Origin: a virus
Virus record (IMG/VR): IMGVR_UViG_3300017971_000203
Direction: 5' to 3' (one strand)
DNA: 64,000 bases
The notes under the pieces are model-generated. The model ran no database searches and was not told where the DNA came from. It saw only the letters and a list, made by a program, of their open reading frames with translations. The translations under genes were made by a program, and so were the position numbers. Shown here one piece after another: positions 7,917 to 20,268 of this stretch (positions are counted from its first letter, which is position 1; every line of letters begins with the position of its first letter).

Positions 7917-9236
7917 TTACACCTTCGTGAAAAGCCACTTGCGGGCGGCTTCTGCGATGCCCTTGGCGACTTGCTTCCACTCCAGTCCGGCCACTTCGAG
8001 CTCGGCTTCGCTCTCCTTGATGACGTCGGCGTTGAAGGCCTTCAGGAAAAGCCCGGTGCCGCGCTTCGTTGGAGCCTCGTCACCGAACACCTCCCCCAGG
8101 ATCTGCTCGCACCGGGCCTCGGTCACGAACATCTCGACGAAGCCTTCGATGCTCTCGGCCACCTCCGGTGCGATCTGGACCGGGGCCTTCTGCTGCACCA
8201 CAGAGTGCTTCTCACCCTTCGTCTTGAACATCAGCTCATGCGCCGGAAGGTACCACGGGAGTGGGTCACCGTTCCCACAGGACACTGGATACCAAACCAA
8301 CCCCTCGCCGACGCCCGAAATGCCGAACGTCTCCTTGACCCAGGTGTCCTCGGCCTCGACGCGCCTCACACAGCCCGCCATGAAACGAGCGTTCTTCTCC
8401 AGGGACTCGCTACTTCCGAAGTCAATCTCCACATAGGAGCTGTACCAGGGCAAGATGAACACGTCCGGGTGAGGCTGGGAACAGAGCGTTTCGATCACGC
8501 CCGGCTCCGTCACCATCTCCGCCTCGTGGTCGAAGCCAACCTGGACGCCGAAGACCACGAAGATCTTCCGGTCGAGCTTCGAAACTGCCATACCCCGCTG
8601 CACACCGGGGCCGCACCACTCTCCGAAGAACGTGAGAGGCTTCGGAGCACCGAGATACTGCTCCCAGTAGTCCCGGTTCTTTTCCACCCAGGCCCGGAAG
8701 CCCTTGTTGTCCTTCACCTCGGGCGTGAGGATACACTTACGGCTCTGCGCCGTAATCCGGCCACCGGCGATCTGAATCGCAGCGTTCGTCCCATGGAGCT
8801 TCACCTTGGCGCAGTAGGACACAACAGGAGGCTTGTACTCCGCACCGACGTGCTCCGCGATCCCCTGAAGGTTCCGAAGCACGTTGTGCAAGAGCTCGAT
8901 CGCTGGCCACTTCACGTGTCGAGGCTTCGTCTTCGGGGAGTAGTCGTCGTGACAGAAGAATTCCGTCAGGTCCGCTCCCTCCTCGTGGTCGGCCTTGTTC
9001 AGGATCATCCCGTAGGACGCCAGACCTCTGAACTTCGCTTTCTTCACCTCGGTACCGTCCCGCAGGATAGCACCCGGGAGCGCCACCGCGACGAGCTCCC
9101 CCTCCTCGTAGATGTGGTCCGAGTTCGCCACCACCTGGACCAACTTCGAATCACCCACAGCGAGGTCGTACACCCAGAGCGTGTCCGCGTTCGGGTGCTT
9201 CTTCCGGGTCTCTACTCGCATCGCTTTCACTGGCAT
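7917..9236 (-). CDS. RNA ligase (Rnl2/DraRnl-like) with N-terminal tRNA-binding OB domain
   Basis: KHPNADTL...VALPGAIL...FRGLASYGMIL (PheT/EMAP-like); ligase motifs KVKLHGTN, FGEWCG, GEGLVW, FKTK. Confidence 0.88.
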   Translation of the reverse strand: MPVKAMRVETRKKHPNADTLWVYDLAVGDSKLVQVVANSDHIYEEGELVAVALPGAILRDGTEVKKAKFRGLASYGMILNKADHEEGADLTEFFCHDDYSPKTKPRHVKWPAIELLHNVLRNLQGIAEHVGAEYKPPVVSYCAKVKLHGTNAAIQIAGGRITAQSRKCILTPEVKDNKGFRAWVEKNRDYWEQYLGAPKPLTFFGEWCGPGVQRGMAVSKLDRKIFVVFGVQVGFDHEAEMVTEPGVIETLCSQPHPDVFILPWYSSYVEIDFGSSESLEKNARFMAGCVRRVEAEDTWVKETFGISGVGEGLVWYPVSCGNGDPLPWYLPAHELMFKTKGEKHSVVQQKAPVQIAPEVAESIEGFVEMFVTEARCEQILGEVFGDEAPTKRGTGLFLKAFNADVIKESEAELEVAGLEWKQVAKGIAEAARKWLFTKV

Positions 9237-9825
9237 TGTCCATCTCCTTCTTGTTGGGGACACCCCCACCAACGCCCCGTGCTGCCCGGTGTACCCTAGT
9301 CTTCGGACCCGTCTTTCGGAGCGTACTTCTGAGCCAGCCGAGCCAGCTCCTCCCGTTCTTTCTGCTCCTTTGCCTCGGCCTGCTGCTTCTTGAGCTCCTC
9401 GAGCGAGGTTTTCCGAAGCGCCCTCACATCGAAGGTCCAGATCGCTCGGGCCTCGATGAGCTGCGCAACTTCGATGATGCTCTCATTCCGCGTCCAGCGG
9501 TCCCTATGTGCGCCGAGGAGAGACCATTCCGAGAAGTTGTAGTGCTCGAGCACGTAGGCCTCGGCCTCTTCCATGGTGTCCATCGGGAGCACTTCGAGGC
9601 ATTCGTTGCAGCCCCAGGGCGCGTGCTTGCACCCCTGGTCGCCCTTGATCCGGAGCAGAAACCGGTGCTCTGGCGGCTCGGGCTCAGGCGACTCGGACTC
9701 TTCTTCTTCTTTGGCCCGCATCTCTATCTGACCGATCCACTTCAGGATGCGCTTCAACCAGGTTCTGTCCTGGGTGCCCCAGTGGCCGAACTCCAGCTCT
9801 TCTTCGATCCGCTCCTCGAGCTCTT

Positions 9826-10329: not shown

Positions 10330-10856
10330 GGCCGAGCATCCTTGGAAGCCTGCACTGAGCTCCACACGAACTCCGCCTTGGCCCGGTTACATCCTAGCCT
10401 CTGCATGCACACAGCGACGCTTTTTTCGCGGTCGTCCCCGATCATGTCGAGGAGCTCCCTCCGGGACAGTCCGAACTCCGCCATACCTTCCTGAATGGAC
10501 GCCTCACGATCCTCCAGTTGGGCGACCACTTTCTTCATGTGCTCGTCGACGGGGTTCGAAACGCGGGGCACCTCGAGCTCCTGGACGAGCTCCGAGAGCC
10601 ACTCATCGTCAGGCAAAGTGTCCCGATAGCCGGCGACGATCTCTTCGGTGCTGTAACCCGGAGGAACGGCGCACCAGAGCGCCACTTTGGCCCGACTGAC
10701 ATCCCTATCGGTCTCGAGCCGCCAGACCTCTCCGGTCCACTCGGCGTAGCACAGGGCGTAGTTCGTGATCACCAGGGATTCGTTCATCTTCACGTAGGCC
10801 AACAGGCGAAACCCCGCCAGGGGCCGGTCCTTGAAGGTCTTCCAGTTCAGCTGCAT
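10326..10856 (-). CDS. Hypothetical protein
   Basis: 176-aa ORF; SD GGAG. Confidence 0.65.
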   Translation of the reverse strand: MQLNWKTFKDRPLAGFRLLAYVKMNESLVITNYALCYAEWTGEVWRLETDRDVSRAKVALWCAVPPGYSTEEIVAGYRDTLPDDEWLSELVQELEVPRVSNPVDEHMKKVVAQLEDREASIQEGMAEFGLSRRELLDMIGDDREKSVAVCMQRLGCNRAKAEFVWSSVQASKDARP

Positions 10857-11440
10857 TCTTCTGTCTCCTTTTCTTTCAGAGCCCTCTGAAGGGTGCCCCT
10901 CGGGATGCCTAGGAGCTTGCTCACTTTCCGTTGGGAGTAGCCCTTGCCAAAGAGCTCTTCCACGGCTTCTAGGTCGGTCTCTACCCTGGGACGCCCGACG
11001 TGTGTCCCGTTGGCCTTAGCGTGCTGCATACCGGCCTTGACCCGCTCCCTGATGGTGTCGCGTTCGAACTCGGCGAAGGCGGCCACGATGGTGAAGAACA
11101 TCTTTCCGGCGGCACTGGTCGTGTCGATGGTCTCCCGGAGGGACACGAAGTCGACGCTGTGCTCCTGGAAGGTCTCCAAGGCGGTCACGAGCTGCCGTGT
11201 GCTCCGGGCGAAGCGGTCGAACTTCCACACAAGGACTACGTCCAGCTTCCCGGTGATCGCATCCTTCATGAGCTTGTCGAGCGCCTTCCTGGAGGCCTTC
11301 GCACCGGAGACACCTTCGTCGACGTACTCCCTGTGCTTCCAGCCGTTGAGCTCCACGTACTTGCGGAGCTCCTCAAGCTGCATCTCGACGCTCTGATCCT
11401 TCGTGGACACCCTGGCGTAGATCCCGGCCCGCTTTTTCAT
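10847..11440 (-). CDS. Small serine recombinase (resolvase/invertase) with C-terminal HTH
   Basis: YARVST..Q...Q, DEGVSG, VWKFDRFARS, AEFERDTIRERVKAG, GRP, HTH. Confidence 0.95.
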   Translation of the reverse strand: MKKRAGIYARVSTKDQSVEMQLEELRKYVELNGWKHREYVDEGVSGAKASRKALDKLMKDAITGKLDVVLVWKFDRFARSTRQLVTALETFQEHSVDFVSLRETIDTTSAAGKMFFTIVAAFAEFERDTIRERVKAGMQHAKANGTHVGRPRVETDLEAVEELFGKGYSQRKVSKLLGIPRGTLQRALKEKETEECS

Positions 11441-12900: not shown

Positions 12901-14106
12901 TCACCAGCTTCCATCGCGAACGGTCTCTGTGTCGACCACCTTCGGGGTGCCGCAACTGACGACCTCCTCGACCGGGGCGCTCGAATCGTCCTGTTGACCC
13001 TCTAAGCCCTTGTCCTTGTCCATCTCGGAGATGGTCTTCACCTTGCCCAGCGTCTCGGAGGCCTCCACGTCACCAAGGTCCTTGTCGTAGAGGTCGAACC
13101 AGGGGATCCCGGCCGCGAAGTACTCGTCCTTGCCGATGGGGCTCGGGGGCGGCGCTTCGCCGGTGATCTGCTGGTACATCTCCGCGTTCACCAGGTGGAC
13201 GAACACGCGCTGCTTGCAGTCCTGGTCCCAGACATGGACACCGTGGGGGTCGGGATAGACCTGCTGACGCATCGAGCCGCCCGCACCCATCCCCATCAGA
13301 GCCGCCTTCGGGGCGTTCTCCTGGAAGCTCCTCTTCGCGTGTCTCCGAATCACCGTGGGCTTGATGGCGTGCCTCATGAAGCCCTTGGCAACGCCTTCAG
13401 GGGCTCCCGCAGGCGCAGTGCTGCACAGGACCGCGCTCTCGAGGGTGTGCCCGCCGCTGGTCTTCACTTCCCCGGAGTAGCTCTCGAAGCCGTCGTCGCC
13501 GTCCCAGCCGAGGCTCTGCCCGGAGGCTCCGCCAGCAGTCGCAAAGCCGCCCTTCGCGACACCGCGGGAGCGCGTGCCTCTGCGCTTCTTGGGCTTCGGG
13601 AAGTGCTCTCGCTTGCCCGGGTAGACGGCCAGCTGCAGGCCGCCGTGCTTCTCCTCACCCGTGACCTGACCTTCCACGGTATAGCCCATGCCCAGGGGCA
13701 TCGCCACGAACTGGCTGACCTTGCCCTCTTCGGACTTGATGCCGTCGATCCACTTCTGGGGCGGAGCCACGAGGTAGTCCTGCTTGTCCTCGCTGAGACC
13801 GTCCTTCCAGGGCTCACCCGTGATGGCGTCGATCTTCCCGACGCCAACCTTCACGGCGCAGGGCGCGTGCGTGCGCAGTCCGAACTGGATCCACATCGCT
13901 TCGCGCTGGTGGAGCGGCAGGAACACGCCGCCCTTCTCCACCCAGCTGGGCGGCACCTTGTCCTTGTAGTCGTCGATGCGCTTGAGAGGGAAGCGTCCGA
14001 CCGAGCGTGGCAGGGGGTAGGTCTTTCCGTCCTCCGGGAGCCGGAAGGTTCTGTGGAAGACCACGATCAGGTTCTCTGTGTGCAGTTCATTGCCGATGAC
14101 TTTCAT
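12901..14106 (-). CDS. Conserved hypothetical protein (FxRTxRxPxDGxxYxLP family)
   Basis: FHRTFRLPEDGKTYPLP, QREAMWI, QDYLVAPPQKWIDG, QFVAMPLGMGYTVEGQVTG, GAGG, PWFDLY. Confidence 0.8.
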   Translation of the reverse strand: MKVIGNELHTENLIVVFHRTFRLPEDGKTYPLPRSVGRFPLKRIDDYKDKVPPSWVEKGGVFLPLHQREAMWIQFGLRTHAPCAVKVGVGKIDAITGEPWKDGLSEDKQDYLVAPPQKWIDGIKSEEGKVSQFVAMPLGMGYTVEGQVTGEEKHGGLQLAVYPGKREHFPKPKKRRGTRSRGVAKGGFATAGGASGQSLGWDGDDGFESYSGEVKTSGGHTLESAVLCSTAPAGAPEGVAKGFMRHAIKPTVIRRHAKRSFQENAPKAALMGMGAGGSMRQQVYPDPHGVHVWDQDCKQRVFVHLVNAEMYQQITGEAPPPSPIGKDEYFAAGIPWFDLYDKDLGDVEASETLGKVKTISEMDKDKGLEGQQDDSSAPVEEVVSCGTPKVVDTETVRDGSW

Positions 14107-14369
14107 GTCGTCTCCTCGTAGTGGCGGGGCCTCCGCCCCTGCAAACTCGAAAGCTCAAGCGGGTTACGAAGTCGTCTGTGGCCGCAAAGGAAGAGCGGTG
14201 CCCCGAGTGGAACTGGATATCGAGACCGCCGCGAAAGGTGCTGCCCATGACGATTCTGTGTGTGTCGTCCCAGTAGTGGACCCGGATGACATCTTCAGGA
14301 TCCGGGGCCTCAGTGAACTCGAGAGCCGAGAAGCCCTGAGACAGCTCTCTCCAGCGGAACGTGCCCACA
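14087..14369 (-). other. Cassette 14, terminal module in the continued linker frame
   Basis: ...HRIVMGSTFRGGLDIQFHSGHRSSFAATDDFVTRLSFRVCRGG... in ORF 14087..14998. Confidence 0.7.
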
Positions 14370-14583
14370 TCACCCCCGTGCGATCCGGAAGCCGACATCG
14401 CTGCCTGCTCCGATCTGGTGTTCGTCGAGGCGTCCATCGTGCTCGAGGAAGTCTCGGTCGTGGGTGCGCACGTAGATGACATTGTTGTAGCAGAAGCCTT
14501 TGAGGAGGGACTTGTAGGAGGCGGTCCGGGGCCTCGGTCCGTTCCCGAGGGGCCAGGGGTTCGGGATCTCAGGCCAAAAGTGG
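14370..14583 (-). other. Cassette 13, placed in 0 frame by a 1-nt insertion in its heptamer (CC[A]CTTTT)
   Basis: HFWPEIPNPW...LLKGFCYNN...SDVGFRIARG*. Confidence 0.8.
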
Positions 14584-17405
14584 CGGCGATCACCCGTAGC
14601 AGATCCGGAAGCCGACGATGTCGTGAGGACTCCCTGGGTAGAAGTTCTCGTCGTGGTAGTAGTTGGTCCGCTTGTGGAGAGTGCCGTCGCTTCTGTTCCG
14701 GTCCCACCAGGACCCGCCCCGGAGACTCCAAAAGGGCGGGGCTCACCCCCAGCAGATCCGGAAGCCCGTGAAGAAGATGCCACGTGGTCGGAGGCTCCCG
14801 TTCCGTCGTCCGAGATGGATCCGGAGAGCGTTCGTGAAGCGGGAGTAGCACTCGCCTCTTCGAACGCGGCGCCGAAAGGGCGCTTACCCTCTGCAAACCC
14901 GGAATCCGATGATGTAGAGCTTTCCTGTGATTCTCCATACCGTGCTGCATCTGCCGAGGGGTTGGAAGTCCTCTGAGAACCACGAGTTCCCTCGGCACCT
15001 GCTAAAGGGCCCCTACCCCCAGCAGATCCGGAAACCTTTGCCCCAGGAGTTGTCGGCGAAAGGTTCGGAGTCACGCTTCGCGACGCTGGCGACACCTCTG
15101 AAGAGGCTGCTGGCGAAGCCTCGCCCGGTCTTGGCGACAGGGAAGACGAAGTGTCGAAAGGGCGCTCAAGTACCTCCGTCGGATCGGACGATCCGGAATC
15201 CGAGCAGCTTGTCGGACATGGTTGTGAGCCCGGTTCCCCGGGCGTTGAGACGGAGGGAGACCGCGGAGCCGCCCCCTCGACAGATCGGGATCCAGACAAA
15301 GGGCGGCGCTCACCCCCAGCAGATCCGGAAGCCGGCGCTGGTCCAGTCCCCGAACTCACGCCCCTGTCTTCGGCGGGATGCGGAAGGCTGGAGTCGCATC
15401 CAGGACCCCGCTCGGACGACCCGAAAGGGACAGCGTCCTCCTCATCCTCGGCAGATCCGGAATCCGCGCCGCTGGTGGGCCCAGCTTCGTCGTGGGGAGA
15501 AGCACTTCCCAGACAGTCGCACGCGCGCGTAGACGGCGTCGAAACACCCTCCCCGGGGCTTGCCATACGGCTCCCGCCAGGGCTCCCCGGAAAAGGGTGA
15601 TCACCCCCAACAGATCCGGAAGCCGATATGATGGGCCCGGGTCCACATGGTGCGGGGGGTCTTTCTCCCGGGTCGCAAATTGTGGGGAGGGTACGGGTGT
15701 GCTGCATCGAGCCATGCGCCCCCTCGGAGGAAGCGGTCCCGAGGAAAGGGTCAGGAGTGTCCTCCTCGACAGATCCGGAAGCCCCAGCGGCCGGCTGCTC
15801 CTCTTCCGTATCCTCTGATGGAGAGCCGTCCGAGAGCGGGGGTAAAGAACTCGATGAGGTAGATCCCCCGCTCCCCGAGTCGAAAGGGCGATCAACCTCG
15901 GGCGATTCGAAAACCCTTACCAAATGAGGAGGAGGCGAAGGGCTCGGATGACCGCTTCGCGAGGCTGGCGACGCCCCTGTAGTAGACGCTGGCGAAGCCC
16001 CGCCCGACCTTGGCGAAGGGGCTCGGTCCTCGAGCGACCCGGTCGGCCTCTGTGGTCTCTCCCCAGGGACGAAAGGGCGGCGATTACCCCTGGGATCGGA
16101 CGATCCGGAAGCCGAGGAGCGTCCCCTTGTACTCGGGGTAGCTCCCAGGGCCTCGGTGGGCGATCCGGGCTCCGTGACCAGAGGAGAGTTCCCTGAACAA
16201 GCGTCCGCCTCGGAAGTTGGCACTTCGAAAGGGCGCCGTCTACCCCCGGCAGATCCTGAACCCTGGTCGAACGGTGTAGAAGACGTAGGTCTCGAGCTCG
16301 ATGTACCAGGACTTGAAGCCCTCGGGGTGTTGGTTCCCGAGCCACTCGCGGCGGGACAATCGGAGGGGTGGGTCGGGGTAGAAAGCGCCGCGGAGAGTGA
16401 GGGATCGCCGTGCCCAAAAGGGAGCTCAACCTCGGCAGAGCCGACGCCCTCGGGGTCCGGCTCGGGCGTCTGGGACGAGGCTGAGTCTGGAGAGGGGCAG
16501 GGGCCAGTCGAGAGAGGAAGTCGTTCGATCTCGAAATTGACCTCCGCGGGCTCTCCGCGCTGGTGCCGTTTCTTCGACGTCACCTGCCTCATGGGAGGGT
16601 CCGGCTTCTGCTCCGCCATAGTGATGTCGGGCTTCGCGTGCTTCATGTGTTCGGCGTATTCGTCCCAGCACCACTCCCAGACGTTCCCCAGGCAGTCGTA
16701 GAGGCCCCACCTGTTCGGAGCCAGCTGCCGAACCGCATGAGTCCGACCATCTGAGTTCTGGTCAAACCAGGCGATCTCTTCCAGAGACGCCTCGCGCCAC
16801 TCGACTTCGCCACCACACCGGTCGCACACCCCAATCTCGTACCGCGCACCGTCGCTGCCCGCCCTGGCGGCGTACTCCCACTCCACCTCGGACGGGATCC
16901 GGAAGCCCGGGCCCTCCTTCCACAGGTAGCCCTGCTGGCGGTCCCCGATGTACGCGGGCGGTAAACCGCAGCGCTCCGAGAGCGCGTTGCAATACTCGAT
17001 GGCGTCGTACCAGCTCACGCACTCCACCGGGCGCTCGAGAGGATTGTCGCCCTGCTGGAAGTGGCTGGGGTTCTTCCCCATCACCGCTGCGTACTCGGAC
17101 TGCGTGACCGGCGCAGAAGCCATCCAGTACGTGTTCTCGATCGTCACCTCGATCTGATGCTCGTTCCGCCACCGACCATCTTCGTCCGGCGGACTGCCCA
17201 ACACGTCCGTACCGGCAGGGATCTCCACCAGCTCCGGGATCACAACGCCCTCCAGACGTGCGAGGTCAAGGCGCGCGAGCACGTCCCCTCCCCGGCTGCG
17301 AAGCCGCAGGAACTCCCGGAGAGCCGCCTCGTCATTGTCCACCGCCAGCTTCCCCAAGCGCTCGAGCTGCCGCACGTTGGTCGTTGATTCTCTCGTTGTC
17401 TCCAC
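14370..17405 (-). CDS. FGE-sulfatase (SUMF1/C-type lectin fold) protein, 0-frame product with long Ser/Gly/Pro linker; parent of frameshift isoform array
   Basis: Motifs IPAG..LGSP, PVTQSEY, PVECVSWYDAIEYCN, RIPSEVEWEYAARAG, PNRWGLYDCLGNVWEWCWD; ends VGFRIARG*. GTG start at 17405 follows SD GGAGGGG. Confidence 0.93.
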   Translation of the reverse strand: METTRESTTNVRQLERLGKLAVDNDEAALREFLRLRSRGGDVLARLDLARLEGVVIPELVEIPAGTDVLGSPPDEDGRWRNEHQIEVTIENTYWMASAPVTQSEYAAVMGKNPSHFQQGDNPLERPVECVSWYDAIEYCNALSERCGLPPAYIGDRQQGYLWKEGPGFRIPSEVEWEYAARAGSDGARYEIGVCDRCGGEVEWREASLEEIAWFDQNSDGRTHAVRQLAPNRWGLYDCLGNVWEWCWDEYAEHMKHAKPDITMAEQKPDPPMRQVTSKKRHQRGEPAEVNFEIERLPLSTGPCPSPDSASSQTPEPDPEGVGSAEVELPFGHGDPSLSAALSTPTHPSDCPAASGSGTNTPRASSPGTSSSRPTSSTPFDQGSGSAGGRRRPFEVPTSEADACSGNSPLVTEPGSPTEALGATPSTRGRSSASGSSDPRGNRRPFVPGERPQRPTGSLEDRAPSPRSGGASPASTTGASPASRSGHPSPSPPPHLVRVFESPEVDRPFDSGSGGSTSSSSLPPLSDGSPSEDTEEEQPAAGASGSVEEDTPDPFLGTASSEGAHGSMQHTRTLPTICDPGERPPAPCGPGPIISASGSVGGDHPFPGSPGGSRMASPGEGVSTPSTRACDCLGSASPHDEAGPTSGADSGSAEDEEDAVPFGSSERGPGCDSSLPHPAEDRGVSSGTGPAPASGSAGGERRPLSGSRSVEGAAPRSPSVSTPGEPGSQPCPTSCSDSGSSDPTEVLERPFDTSSSLSPRPGEASPAASSEVSPASRSVTPNLSPTTPGAKVSGSAGGRGPLAGAEGTRGSQRTSNPSADAARYGESQESSTSSDSGFAEGKRPFGAAFEEASATPASRTLSGSISDDGTGASDHVASSSRASGSAGGEPRPFGVSGAGPGGTGTEATALSTSGPTTTTTRTSTQGVLTTSSASGSATGDRRHFWPEIPNPWPLGNGPRPRTASYKSLLKGFCYNNVIYVRTHDRDFLEHDGRLDEHQIGAGSDVGFRIARG
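14590..14736 (-). other. Cassette 12 (-1 frame, CCCTTTT)
   Basis: PFWSLRGGSWWDRNRSDGTLHKRTNYYHDENFYPGSPHDIVGFRICYG*; canonical RGGSW...GFR. Confidence 0.92.
14743..14880 (-). other. Cassette 11 (-1 frame, CCCTTTC)
   Basis: PFRRRVRRGECYSRFTNALRIHLGRRNGSLRPRGIFFTGFRICWG*. Confidence 0.87.
14884..15009 (-). other. Cassette 10 (-1 frame, CCCTTTA)
   Basis: PFSRCRGNSWFSEDFQPLGRCSTVWRITGKLYIIGFRVCRG*. Confidence 0.87.
15013..15162 (-). other. Cassette 9 (-1 frame, CCCTTTC), paralog of cassette 3
   Basis: PFRHFVFPVAKTGRGFASSLFRGVASVAKRDSEPFADNSWGKGFRICWG*. Confidence 0.87.
15166..15303 (-). other. Cassette 8 (-1 frame, CCCTTTG)
   Basis: PFVWIPICRGGGSAVSLRLNARGTGLTTMSDKLLGFRIVRSDGGT*. Confidence 0.85.
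15310..15429 (-). other. Cassette 7 (-1 frame, CCCTTTC)
   Basis: PFRVVRAGSWMRLQPSASRRRQGREFGDWTSAGFRICWG*. Confidence 0.9.
15442..15597 (-). other. Cassette 6 (-1 frame, CCCTTTT)
   Basis: PFSGEPWREPYGKPRGGCFDAVYARVRLSGKCFSPRRSWAHQRRGFRICRG*. Confidence 0.87.
15601..15750 (-). other. Cassette 5 (-1 frame, CCCTTTC)
   Basis: PFPRDRFLRGGAWLDAAHPYPPHNLRPGRKTPRTMWTRAHHIGFRICWG*. Confidence 0.9.
15751..15888 (-). other. Cassette 4 (-1 frame, CCCTTTC)
   Basis: PFRLGERGIYLIEFFTPALGRLSIRGYGRGAAGRWGFRICRGGHS*. Confidence 0.85.
15892..16077 (-). other. Cassette 3 (-1 frame, CCCTTTC)
   Basis: PFRPWGETTEADRVARGPSPFAKVGRGFASVYYRGVASLAKRSSEPFASSSFGKGFRIARG*. Confidence 0.87.
16084..16233 (-). other. Cassette 2 (-1 frame, CCCTTTC)
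   Basis: PFRSANFRGGRLFRELSSGHGARIAHRGPGSYPEYKGTLLGFRIVRSQG*. Confidence 0.87.
16240..16422 (-). other. Cassette 1 (-1 frame, CCCTTTT)
   Basis: PFWARRSLTLRGAFYPDPPLRLSRREWLGNQHPEGFKSWYIELETYVFYTVRPGFRICRG*. Confidence 0.85.
16426..16599 (-). other. Cassette 0 (-1 frame, degenerate entry CCCTCCC)
   Basis: PSHEAGDVEETAPARRARGGQFRDRTTSSLDWPLPLSRLSLVPDARAGPRGRRLCRG*. Confidence 0.55.
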
Positions 17406-18015: not shown

Positions 18016-18043
18016 ACTATATCGGTCGTTCCCCGGTTGTCAA
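18016..18043 (-). promoter_or_regulatory. sigma70-type promoter upstream of the RHH/FGE-array operon
   Basis: TTGACA-16-TATAGT. Confidence 0.65.
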
Positions 18044-18253: not shown

Positions 18254-18369
18254 CAGCAAGACTCCTGTTAGGGTGAGTGAGCTACATCGGTGTAGTACAT
18301 ACAAAAACGTACCCGATCCGAAGCGGGAAGGGAAGGGGTATCACCGAAAGAAGGGGAGCTTGTAGGAAG

Positions 18370-20268
18370 ATGGCGACACAACGGCGGAAACTGTTCCCGG
18401 CCCTGATTGTCGATCTGACCCCCATCGAACTGGCTGCGAAGGGCCTGGTTTCGACGCATACGTTCGGCCAGCAGTTCGAGTTGCAACCAACCACTCTCAC
18501 CGCATCCGCGGGCGCGAACTATTTCCCCGCGGTTCGGACCACAGCCAAGTGCAGGGACAAGCGCTACGCCTACCCCAGGGATATGCGTTGCTACCTGGCC
18601 AGCCACAAGTTCCACACGAAAGAGGGGGAGGAACCTGTGGAACTGCCCCAGGCGCTCTTCAATGACCCCTACGACCCCCCGGGAGGGTTCAAGACCCGCC
18701 TGGACTGGAACCCGAGCTCCTGGCGCGTAGGCGACCCGTTCCCGAAATTCGACTCGGGACCTGACCTGGAAGGCTGCGAAGAACTCGAGGGGGACGAGCT
18801 CCTGAAGAAGGCGGTGGAACTTCTGGACTTCGGCTACTTCCTGAAGGCCACCGGCAAGCTCCTTGGACGGTCTCCCACAGTGCTGCGCGAACTCCTGATA
18901 GACGCCGGCGAATGGCCCCGGAAAGACCTCGGAGGCCAGAAGACTCGTAAACGGGGCGTCGTCGAAGAACCAGAGCCGGAAGAGCCGGAGCCCGAAGCAG
19001 CTGCCGAAGAGCCGCAACCGGAGCCAGAGCCGGAGCCGGAAGAGCCAGAAGCCGAGGTCGTGGATGAAGACGAAGACCTCGGAGAAGACTTCAGAGACCT
19101 AGGAGAGCCCGAGTTCAGCCCCGAAGGCATCCTGACCCTCTATTTCGAGAATCACCCCTTCCAGCTGACCGATAGCAATACACACCCCTTCGTCATCAAA
19201 GATGCTTGTGATTACCTGGAGATCCAGAACGCCCGCCAGGCTGCCGATCGGCTAGACAAGGATGATGTATGTTCAACATATATCATCGACTCGCTGGGCA
19301 GACCTCAGAAAACGCTCACCTGCAACTTCCCCGGCTACCTGGATCTCGTGATGGGGGCTCGGTCTTCGGACCGTGCACGCCCCTTCCAGCGGTGGGTAAC
19401 ACACACCGTTCTGCCCACTCTTGCCAAACTGGGGACGTACACTCTGGGACAAGAACAGGCCGCTCATGGCTCGCCGCTGCCGGGGGACCTCGAGCGCCTC
19501 TTCATGCAGCAGGCAGAGATCAACGTCCAACAATCCCGGATCAACGCCCAGCACGCCGAGACCATCTCCACCCTGGAAGAGCTGGTCGGGAAAATGATGG
19601 GGGGCATCGACGACTTCGTGAAGAGTGCTTCGAAGCGCTTCGAAGAGGTCGAAGAACGAACGGACCAAGCTGAAGAGCGTATTTCCAACCTGGAAGAAAC
19701 CCTGAAGAACGCCCTGGAAGACCCGTTCCTCGGAAACGACGCTGCGAACCAGGACAGGCACATCTTGAACGCGATCGCCAAGGCCAGGGGCATGGCCATC
19801 TTCTTCGGCACCAGCGACGGTGCCCGGATCGAAAGACAACTCCGAATTTGTCCCGAGGGCTCTCCCGAACACGACAAGCTGAAGTCCGAGAAGTGGAAAA
19901 AAGCCAGACCCCACATCAAAGGTGTATACACGGCCTTCTACCGCTACCTGCTCCGCCATTCCCGGAACCCTGTCATCGACGTGTGCGCCCGCAAACGCAG
20001 AGATGTGGAGCTCGTCAAGAAAGCCAACGGCGCCAAGGCCGCCAAACGGTTCGAAGGGATCGCTCGTCTGATCGACTACATCAGAGTCGAAGAGATGCCG
20101 GAAGCGTTGACCCTCCTGGTTCGCTCCTGTCTGGAAGAAGGGTTCTATCCCGTGCTGTTCCACGAACAACCCCGCATCCGGGAACTGATACGGGATATCC
20201 GGTACAAGAAAGAAAACAAACCGCGTGGTTCCAACGGAACGCCGCCGGAACCGCCCCCGAGCCCCTGA
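18370..20268 (+). CDS. Bro-N domain (antirepressor-like) protein with PE-rich linker and coiled coil
   Basis: PFVIKDACDYLEIQNARQA...GYLDLVMGARSSDRARPFQRWVTHTVLPTLAKLGTY. Confidence 0.82.
   Translation: MATQRRKLFPALIVDLTPIELAAKGLVSTHTFGQQFELQPTTLTASAGANYFPAVRTTAKCRDKRYAYPRDMRCYLASHKFHTKEGEEPVELPQALFNDPYDPPGGFKTRLDWNPSSWRVGDPFPKFDSGPDLEGCEELEGDELLKKAVELLDFGYFLKATGKLLGRSPTVLRELLIDAGEWPRKDLGGQKTRKRGVVEEPEPEEPEPEAAAEEPQPEPEPEPEEPEAEVVDEDEDLGEDFRDLGEPEFSPEGILTLYFENHPFQLTDSNTHPFVIKDACDYLEIQNARQAADRLDKDDVCSTYIIDSLGRPQKTLTCNFPGYLDLVMGARSSDRARPFQRWVTHTVLPTLAKLGTYTLGQEQAAHGSPLPGDLERLFMQQAEINVQQSRINAQHAETISTLEELVGKMMGGIDDFVKSASKRFEEVEERTDQAEERISNLEETLKNALEDPFLGNDAANQDRHILNAIAKARGMAIFFGTSDGARIERQLRICPEGSPEHDKLKSEKWKKARPHIKGVYTAFYRYLLRHSRNPVIDVCARKRRDVELVKKANGAKAAKRFEGIARLIDYIRVEEMPEALTLLVRSCLEEGFYPVLFHEQPRIRELIRDIRYKKENKPRGSNGTPPEPPPSP

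Follow-up and report, generated by a model that had tools for sequence, protein, structure and literature searches.

One-site -1 PRF relies on a slippery heptamer and a Shine-Dalgarno (SD) sequence, which give a fixed share of ribosomes another C-terminus (PMC4066793, PMC5009743). The dnaX gene, IS911 and the IS3 family, lambda G/GT, T3/T7 gene 10 and the phage A2 capsid gene share a phased heptamer and an upstream SD with the locus described here, which belongs to an uncultured phage-like element. Those genes have one site and two products, whereas the array has 12 serial sites that would lead to mutually exclusive paralogous exits, lacks a conserved 3' structure, and includes a linker that has evolved in frame 0. 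Genes with several shifts are also on record, in retroviruses (two -1 shifts), in Euplotes, and among mitochondrial genes with 10-12 shifts (PMC5009743). There, successive shifts complete one product, while in the array the exits are alternatives and each ribosome would take at most one. In the literature searched we found no array of alternative frameshift exits, in keeping with a preliminary description of this locus whose author knew of no such system. The signal is known; the architecture is undescribed.

The variable proteins of DGRs (TvpA, PDB 2y3c; BPP-1 Mtd; the FGS effectors, PMC7159879) have the same fold family as the array protein and, like it, a variable C-terminal segment. Array cassettes differ from DGR variants in that they vary by indels and throughout their length, not by adenine changes. 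A DGR holds one variant per genome, whereas the array variants are inferred to be co-expressed. No reverse transcriptase, sought as a YxDD ORF longer than 200 aa, occurs in the 64 kb examined (the contig measures up to 153 kb), as the preliminary description had supposed. No TR/VR pair was found: cassettes 3 and 9, the closest to one another, differ at all base types and mostly at third positions, and the window holds no other copy. The systems tprK, pilE/pilS, vlsE, shufflons and tail-fibre invertases rearrange DNA. Like the array, they combine a constant part with a set of alternative segments, C-terminal or variable; unlike theirs, the array cassettes are all direct, lie inside one open frame, and carry their own translation signals.

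Layout of the gene

The window, meaning the whole 64,000-nucleotide stretch of IMG/VR record IMGVR_UViG_3300017971_000203 that was analysed, contains on its minus strand a frame (frame 0) that is open from a GTG with a good SD at 17405 to a TGA at 14370 and encodes 1011 aa. Residues 57-261 match Pfam model PF03781 (FGE-sulfatase family) at E 2e-37 over profile positions 3-204 of 255, and the best PDB match of this N-domain is TvpA 2y3c (E 5e-27). The last 50 profile positions, corresponding to the RGG...GFR segment, are absent directly after the N-domain. The features of the locus are as follows.

16647-17405, minus: start GTG at 17405 with SD, N-terminal helical hairpin, and FGE/CLec N-domain to GNVWEWCWD, without the last segment of the fold (PF03781 and PDB match)
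14583-16646, minus: frame-0 linker of Ser/Gly/Pro, about 690 codons without stop or Trp; predicted to be disordered
16240-16422, minus: cassette 1, -1 frame, 60 aa, CCCTTTT, SD spacing 7
16084-16233, minus: cassette 2, -1 frame, 49 aa, CCCTTTC, SD spacing 9
15892-16077, minus: cassette 3, -1 frame, 61 aa, CCCTTTC, SD spacing 9, paralog of cassette 9
15751-15888, minus: cassette 4, -1 frame, 45 aa, CCCTTTC, SD spacing 7
15601-15750, minus: cassette 5, -1 frame, 49 aa, CCCTTTC, SD spacing 10, matches PF03781 positions 214-253
15442-15597, minus: cassette 6, -1 frame, 51 aa, CCCTTTT, SD spacing 6
15310-15429, minus: cassette 7, -1 frame, 39 aa, CCCTTTC, SD spacing 7
15166-15303, minus: cassette 8, -1 frame, 45 aa, CCCTTTG, SD spacing 9
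15013-15162, minus: cassette 9, -1 frame, 49 aa, CCCTTTC, SD spacing 10, paralog of cassette 3
14884-15009, minus: cassette 10, -1 frame, 41 aa, CCCTTTA, SD spacing 6
14743-14880, minus: cassette 11, -1 frame, 45 aa, CCCTTTC, SD spacing 7
14590-14736, minus: cassette 12, -1 frame, 48 aa, CCCTTTT, SD spacing 9, canonical RGGSW motif, modelled in the N-domain
14370-14582, minus: cassette 13, frame 0, 70 aa, default end of the 1011-aa product
14087-14368, minus: cassette 14, +1 frame, 93 aa, GTG start, strong SD at spacing 4, ends SFRVCRG plus a tail

This anatomy is observed directly, and most of it had been described correctly. Frame 0 runs past GNVWEWCWD as stop-free Ser/Gly/Pro filler, slightly longer than the roughly 670 codons first estimated. 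Stops split the -1 frame into 12 cassettes of 39-61 aa, each behind an in-phase C_CCT_TTN, with the sizes, heptamer positions and seventh bases exactly as first given. All spacings are multiples of three, and the 12 heptamers share one phase. They are the sole CCCTTT occurrences in 14000-17405; the entire minus strand of the window has 18, these 12 included. Among 5665 control codons there are 14 in-frame X_XXY_YYZ heptamers, none of them CCCTTTN. The count of about 13-15 alternative C-termini also agrees with what is found, namely 12 in the -1 frame, cassette 13 in frame 0, and cassette 14 as a mini-gene. Finer details required amendment. The cassettes had been said to begin exactly at the heptamers, but their frames open 0-4 codons earlier, immediately behind the preceding stop. 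About seven cassettes have a clear RG(G) motif, and in others it is degenerate; GFR(I/V) occurs in all 12 but is followed by a further 2-8 residues before the stop.

An independent Logan assembly is identical to the window (100%) over 23,090 nt, so the array is not an assembly artefact. The same protein is encoded in the assemblies on record, which possibly come from related samples.

Slippery sites and their upstream elements

Members of all four C_CC.U_UU.N heptamer types shift in E. coli (PMC4066793), and each of the 12 array sites stands in X_XXY_YYZ phase, as expected of the -1 slippery heptamer that the preliminary description took C_CCT_TTN to be. Without stimulation, heptamers give only about 0.1% or more shifting in E. 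coli (PMC4066793), a low rate that weighs against the proposal developed below. The TTT codon is rare in control genes (22 TTT vs 179 TTC), and all 12 array sites use it.

An SD-like element is found upstream of every one of the 12 heptamers. The anti-SD duplex averages -11.7 kcal/mol at the junctions, against a background of -5.4 +/- 2.9 kcal/mol in the array body, and none of 100,000 random sets was as low as the junction set. Distances from the end of the SD core to the heptamer are 6, 6, 7, 7, 7, 7, 9, 9, 9, 9, 10 and 10 nt. This distance is kept although the encoded residues differ, so the constraint acts on the RNA. The window reported for SD action in -1 frameshifting, 6-17 nt (PMC4066793), includes 12 of 12 sites. 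A range of 9-14 nt has also been given for -1 stimulation (PMC5009743), and only six of the 12 fall inside this optimum; the remaining six, with 6-7 nt to the first C, fall under it, which also weighs against the proposal. The host tRNA and anti-SD sequence were assumed and do not come from an identified host.

A 3' hairpin or pseudoknot is frequent in bacterial -1 PRF without being obligatory. No consistent 3' hairpin is seen across the sites (mean z -0.44 vs -0.29 in controls), another point against the proposal, and only the sites at 15888 and 15009 have z near -2 or lower. At none of the 12 sites does the -1 frame contain an ATG, GTG, TTG or CTG at initiation distance.

Selection in two reading frames

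Selection on both frames is evident from codon choice. When the cassette peptides are re-encoded with the codon usage of the window, 7.3 frame-0 stops are expected in the array, and zero was reached in none of 5000 simulations; the control genes predict 18.6, and the array has none. When only the synonymous codons present in the array are shuffled, an absence of frame-0 stops has P 0.10, because the codon bias of the array is itself the signal. The bias extends to Leu and Val codons that are unable to create a stop, where the G:C ratio is 3:41 in the array vs 261:232 in controls (P 5e-10), and this choice converts frame 0 to Ser. Frame 0 has 70 hydrophobic residues vs 114 +/- 9 expected, and no Trp. 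Because the codon bias exceeds stop avoidance, we conclude that frame 0 is a translated frame, tuned to serve as a flexible linker.

Comparison of cassettes 3 and 9 gives pN/pS of 0.22/0.46 for the -1 frame and 0.28/0.27 for frame 0. By this measure, which rests on one pair and 42 codons, the -1-frame cassette peptides are under purifying selection. Judged from their sequences, cassettes 3 and 9 are diverged duplicates, and the array has been remodelled over evolutionary time. The earlier statement that the repertoire involves no DNA change would thus hold for each infection but not over evolution.

Cassettes and the FGE fold

We built a hidden Markov model from 44 ordinary FGE C-segments and set the cut-off at the shuffled 99th percentile, 5.1 bits. 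Eight of the 12 cassettes score 6.4-22 bits, with cassette 9 (6.4 bits) and cassette 4 (6.5 bits) marginal. Cassettes 1, 6 and 11 are below the threshold on this model, at 1.4, 4.8 and -0.6 bits. As far as sequence comparison can tell, these three barely resemble the FGE C-segment, and this counts against the proposal developed below. Searched against PHROGs, GenBank phages and Atlas, the cassette bodies gave no significant match, and for the four compared by tblastn the idea that they contain pieces of phage head genes is not supported.

Modelled together as two chains, the N-domain and cassette 12 reach a score of 0.86, while the best of three controls scores 0.02. Contacts agree at 87% or better, partner pLDDT is at least 61, and the Phe of the cassette 12 GFR is buried against the GNVWEW motif. 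Among solved pairs 58 of 80 reach the mark for such models, and among mismatched ones 2 of 110. Two parts of a single known fold can pass merely through likeness to solved structures such as TvpA. In this model the cassette supplies the missing fold segment, which does not establish that each isoform folds; that remains inferred, as does ligand binding by each cassette, for which the fold is the only ground. The preliminary description held that the RGG...GFR segment completes the FGE/CLec fold, and the match of cassette 5 to PF03781 positions 214-253 and the docking of cassette 12 agree with it. It also called for models of the N-domain with each cassette, and the result is for cassette 12 only. 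In an alignment-based model of the full-length protein, the N-domain and the terminal GFR strand are predicted with confidence and the linker between them is disordered and of low confidence; the alignment forced the pairing of N-domain and terminal strand. Single-sequence fold prediction of the protein was uninformative.

Upstream of cassette 1, at 16426-16566 (minus, -1 frame), is a possible degenerate cassette 0, which ends in RLCRG and a stop and lacks a slippery entry.

The end of the array

At the 13th junction the GFR repeat is retained along with the SD, and the sequence is CCACTTTT, with one extra A. Because of this one extra base, cassette 13 lies in frame 0 and the slippery heptamer is lost. 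An in-frame, non-slippery cassette 13 is what a default last exit needs, and it is the best internal control in the locus. The GTG of cassette 14 starts one base past the frame-0 stop, and here the same Phe is written with the ordinary TTC. Cassette 14 is probably a coupled mini-gene. It suggests that the array descends from SD-led mini-genes, whose start codons may have been replaced by slippery sites.

A G5 run precedes the frame-0 stop (14370-14376) and the stops of cassettes 1, 5, 7, 9 and 11. A +1 or -2 slip there could restore frame 0 or enter cassette 14, which is speculative. A 401-aa gene at 12901-14106 (minus) is coupled to cassette 14 and has its SD within the cassette 14 tail; neither Pfam nor PHROG has a match for it, and the viral scan gave no relative.

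Proposed serial frameshift exits and their alternatives

We think it quite likely that the locus undergoes serial SD-stimulated -1 ribosomal frameshifting and makes 13 isoforms of 388-1011 aa, although there are no expression, ribosome or read data. The constant FGE/CLec N-domain would be translated first, followed by the linker in frame 0. At each of the 12 junctions the internal SD-like sequence would pair with 16S rRNA 6-10 nt before C_CCU_UUN, and a fraction of ribosomes would slip -1, with tRNA-Pro moving from CCU to CCC and tRNA-Phe or tRNA-Leu from UUN to UUU. A slipped ribosome would read one 39-61 aa cassette and stop just before the next junction, while ribosomes that never slip would arrive at the in-frame cassette 13. 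Each cassette would provide the missing last segment of the fold (RGG...GFR), in which DGRs have their variable region. A disordered tether of 80-690 aa would take the place of the short loop usual in this fold. One mRNA would then yield all 13 isoforms at once, the 12 shifted ones measuring 44-98 kDa. Slippage of about 5-10% per site would populate all exits. A calculation at 10% per site has the exits yielding 10% to 3%, with 28% of ribosomes reaching the end, and a modest efficiency suits such a ladder. Frameshifting and its efficiencies are inferred. The preliminary description had proposed stochastic serial exits and a fixed repertoire; the open hydrophilic frame 0, the heptamers, the SDs, cassette 13 and the docking model lend support to it. 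We consider it fairly likely that the SD-tuned exits give a fixed repertoire of at least 13 ligand-binding isoforms per mRNA, a non-mutagenic alternative to a DGR. The SD spacing may determine the share of each isoform.

Much of the same anatomy could arise if the 1011-aa protein were the sole product and cassettes 1-12 served as silent donors to an expression site at cassette 13, with copying or recombination crossing over at CCCTTT and at the GFR-coding repeat. The junctions are a family of 24-36 nt direct repeats, cassettes 3 and 9 are duplicates, and a serine resolvase gene lies 3 kb downstream. A terminal site likewise requires an open, hydrophilic frame 0, and selection on both frames, taken alone, is equally expected for silent donors upstream of it. 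We nevertheless regard such exchange as unlikely. It leaves the SD at a set distance, the slippery phase and the rare TTT codon unexplained, and exchange at CCCTTT sites would never bring a cassette in frame, because all spacings are multiples of three. Donors inside the ORF would cost 690 translated residues for nothing, and the assemblies on record, related or not, agree in the protein they encode. We found no inverted recombination sites flanking the cassettes; the junction repeats are all direct, and the inverted repeats are short and scattered.

RNA polymerase would produce the same repertoire, with identical dual-coding anatomy, by inserting a single base at the C3T3-4 run of some mRNAs, and strict codon phase is expected under ribosomal and transcriptional slippage alike. 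Known polymerase slippage tracts are about 8-9 nt or more, the length of the hybrid, whereas the run here is only 6-7 nt and its seventh base varies. There is no conserved nascent hairpin, and the conserved upstream element complements 16S rRNA, a signal for the ribosome. Bacteria and phages do have productive polymerase slippage (PMC5009743), but as the explanation here it seems improbable. We give slightly less credence still to independent mini-genes, in which each SD would start a separate cassette peptide, to complement the N-domain in trans. SD strength and spacing do resemble those of true starts, and cassette 14 is built in this way, but the missing start codons at all 12 sites speak against it, and the heptamer and the long open frame 0 would be left without a reason. 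That the array is a relic, a decayed set of mini-genes now read only as linker, is the hardest to credit. Several cassettes are degenerate, but all 12 are stop-free to the GFR end, have kept heptamer and SD, and show a -1 frame under purifying selection, so that codon statistics largely refute it. Each of these rivals leaves the combination of SD, heptamer and phase unexplained; serial -1 frameshifting would account for all the features.

Relatives of the array

Protein searches and a 50%-cluster search returned only one relative with this layout, P0003 (Logan SRR29850983, 756 aa), which is 62% identical over the N-domain and has a truncated FGE domain followed by filler with 20% Ser. In this filler six of seven Phe follow Pro (0.6 expected), and an SD is feasible 10-11 nt upstream at five of the seven sites, vs 0.16 of positions at 9-11 nt. 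P0003 is known as protein only, so heptamers and SDs are merely feasible there and have not been seen. Its filler does not align with the array filler, and its in-frame end has no score on the C-segment model. Back-translation gives no clear excess of feasible GFR motifs (3 vs 3.0) or of xFR[IVL] (12 vs 7.2, P 0.06). One Pro-Phe site lies 12 residues past the N-domain, matching the place of the possible cassette 0. The sequence of P0003 is suggestive only of a shared layout of truncated FGE domain and Pro-Phe-punctuated filler.

The preliminary description had pointed to FGE genes with such arrays in related phages. P0003 is the one protein of like layout; scans of viral, metagenome and GTDB sequences yielded about 200 other FGE loci with ordinary single tails, and DNA-pattern scans for the junctions or for clade peptides found no array. 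Annotation treats such a gene as a single low-complexity ORF, so its cassettes cannot be seen in protein databases. Two viral contigs (L196 and L209) have at least three whole FGE genes in tandem, a repertoire by full duplication.

Genomic setting and significance

The operon is headed by a promoter-like site, behind which the FGE gene is third, with two small genes between.

18016-18043, minus: sigma70-type promoter-like site, 11 of 12 matches, heads the operon (consensus match only)

The neighbours are phage-type accessory genes, for Bro-N, RNA ligase, HNH endonuclease and resolvase, and no tail genes lie near the FGE gene. FGE-fold domains occur as variable sensors or effectors in conflict systems (PMC7159879). 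Because the promoter is of sigma70 type and the neighbours are small accessory genes and not tail genes, our guess, a tentative one that could well be wrong, is that the array provides an early, cytoplasmic set of binders for phage-host or phage-phage conflict. Their ligands are unidentified.

If the proposal is true, the array would represent a new form of protein diversification in prokaryotic systems, without DNA change or reverse transcriptase. Every infected cell would hold all variants, a translational counterpart of mutually exclusive splicing. The 12 natural variants of a frameshift signal (SD spacing 6-10, four seventh bases), all set in a single context, could be used to probe how SD distance affects -1 efficiency. 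The locus also offers natural dual coding over 1.8 kb with one frame tuned to a flexible linker, and a compact design by which many binders are expressed from one gene.

Three neighbouring genes deserve brief mention. The serine resolvase (PF00239 plus HTH) is at 10847-11440 (minus), with no link to the array shown. A gene at 7917-9272 (minus) fuses a tRNA-binding domain (PF01588) to an RNA ligase (PF09414) and probably serves RNA repair. The Bro-N protein, encoded at 18277-20268 (plus) and divergent from the array operon, has a Glu/Pro-rich linker.
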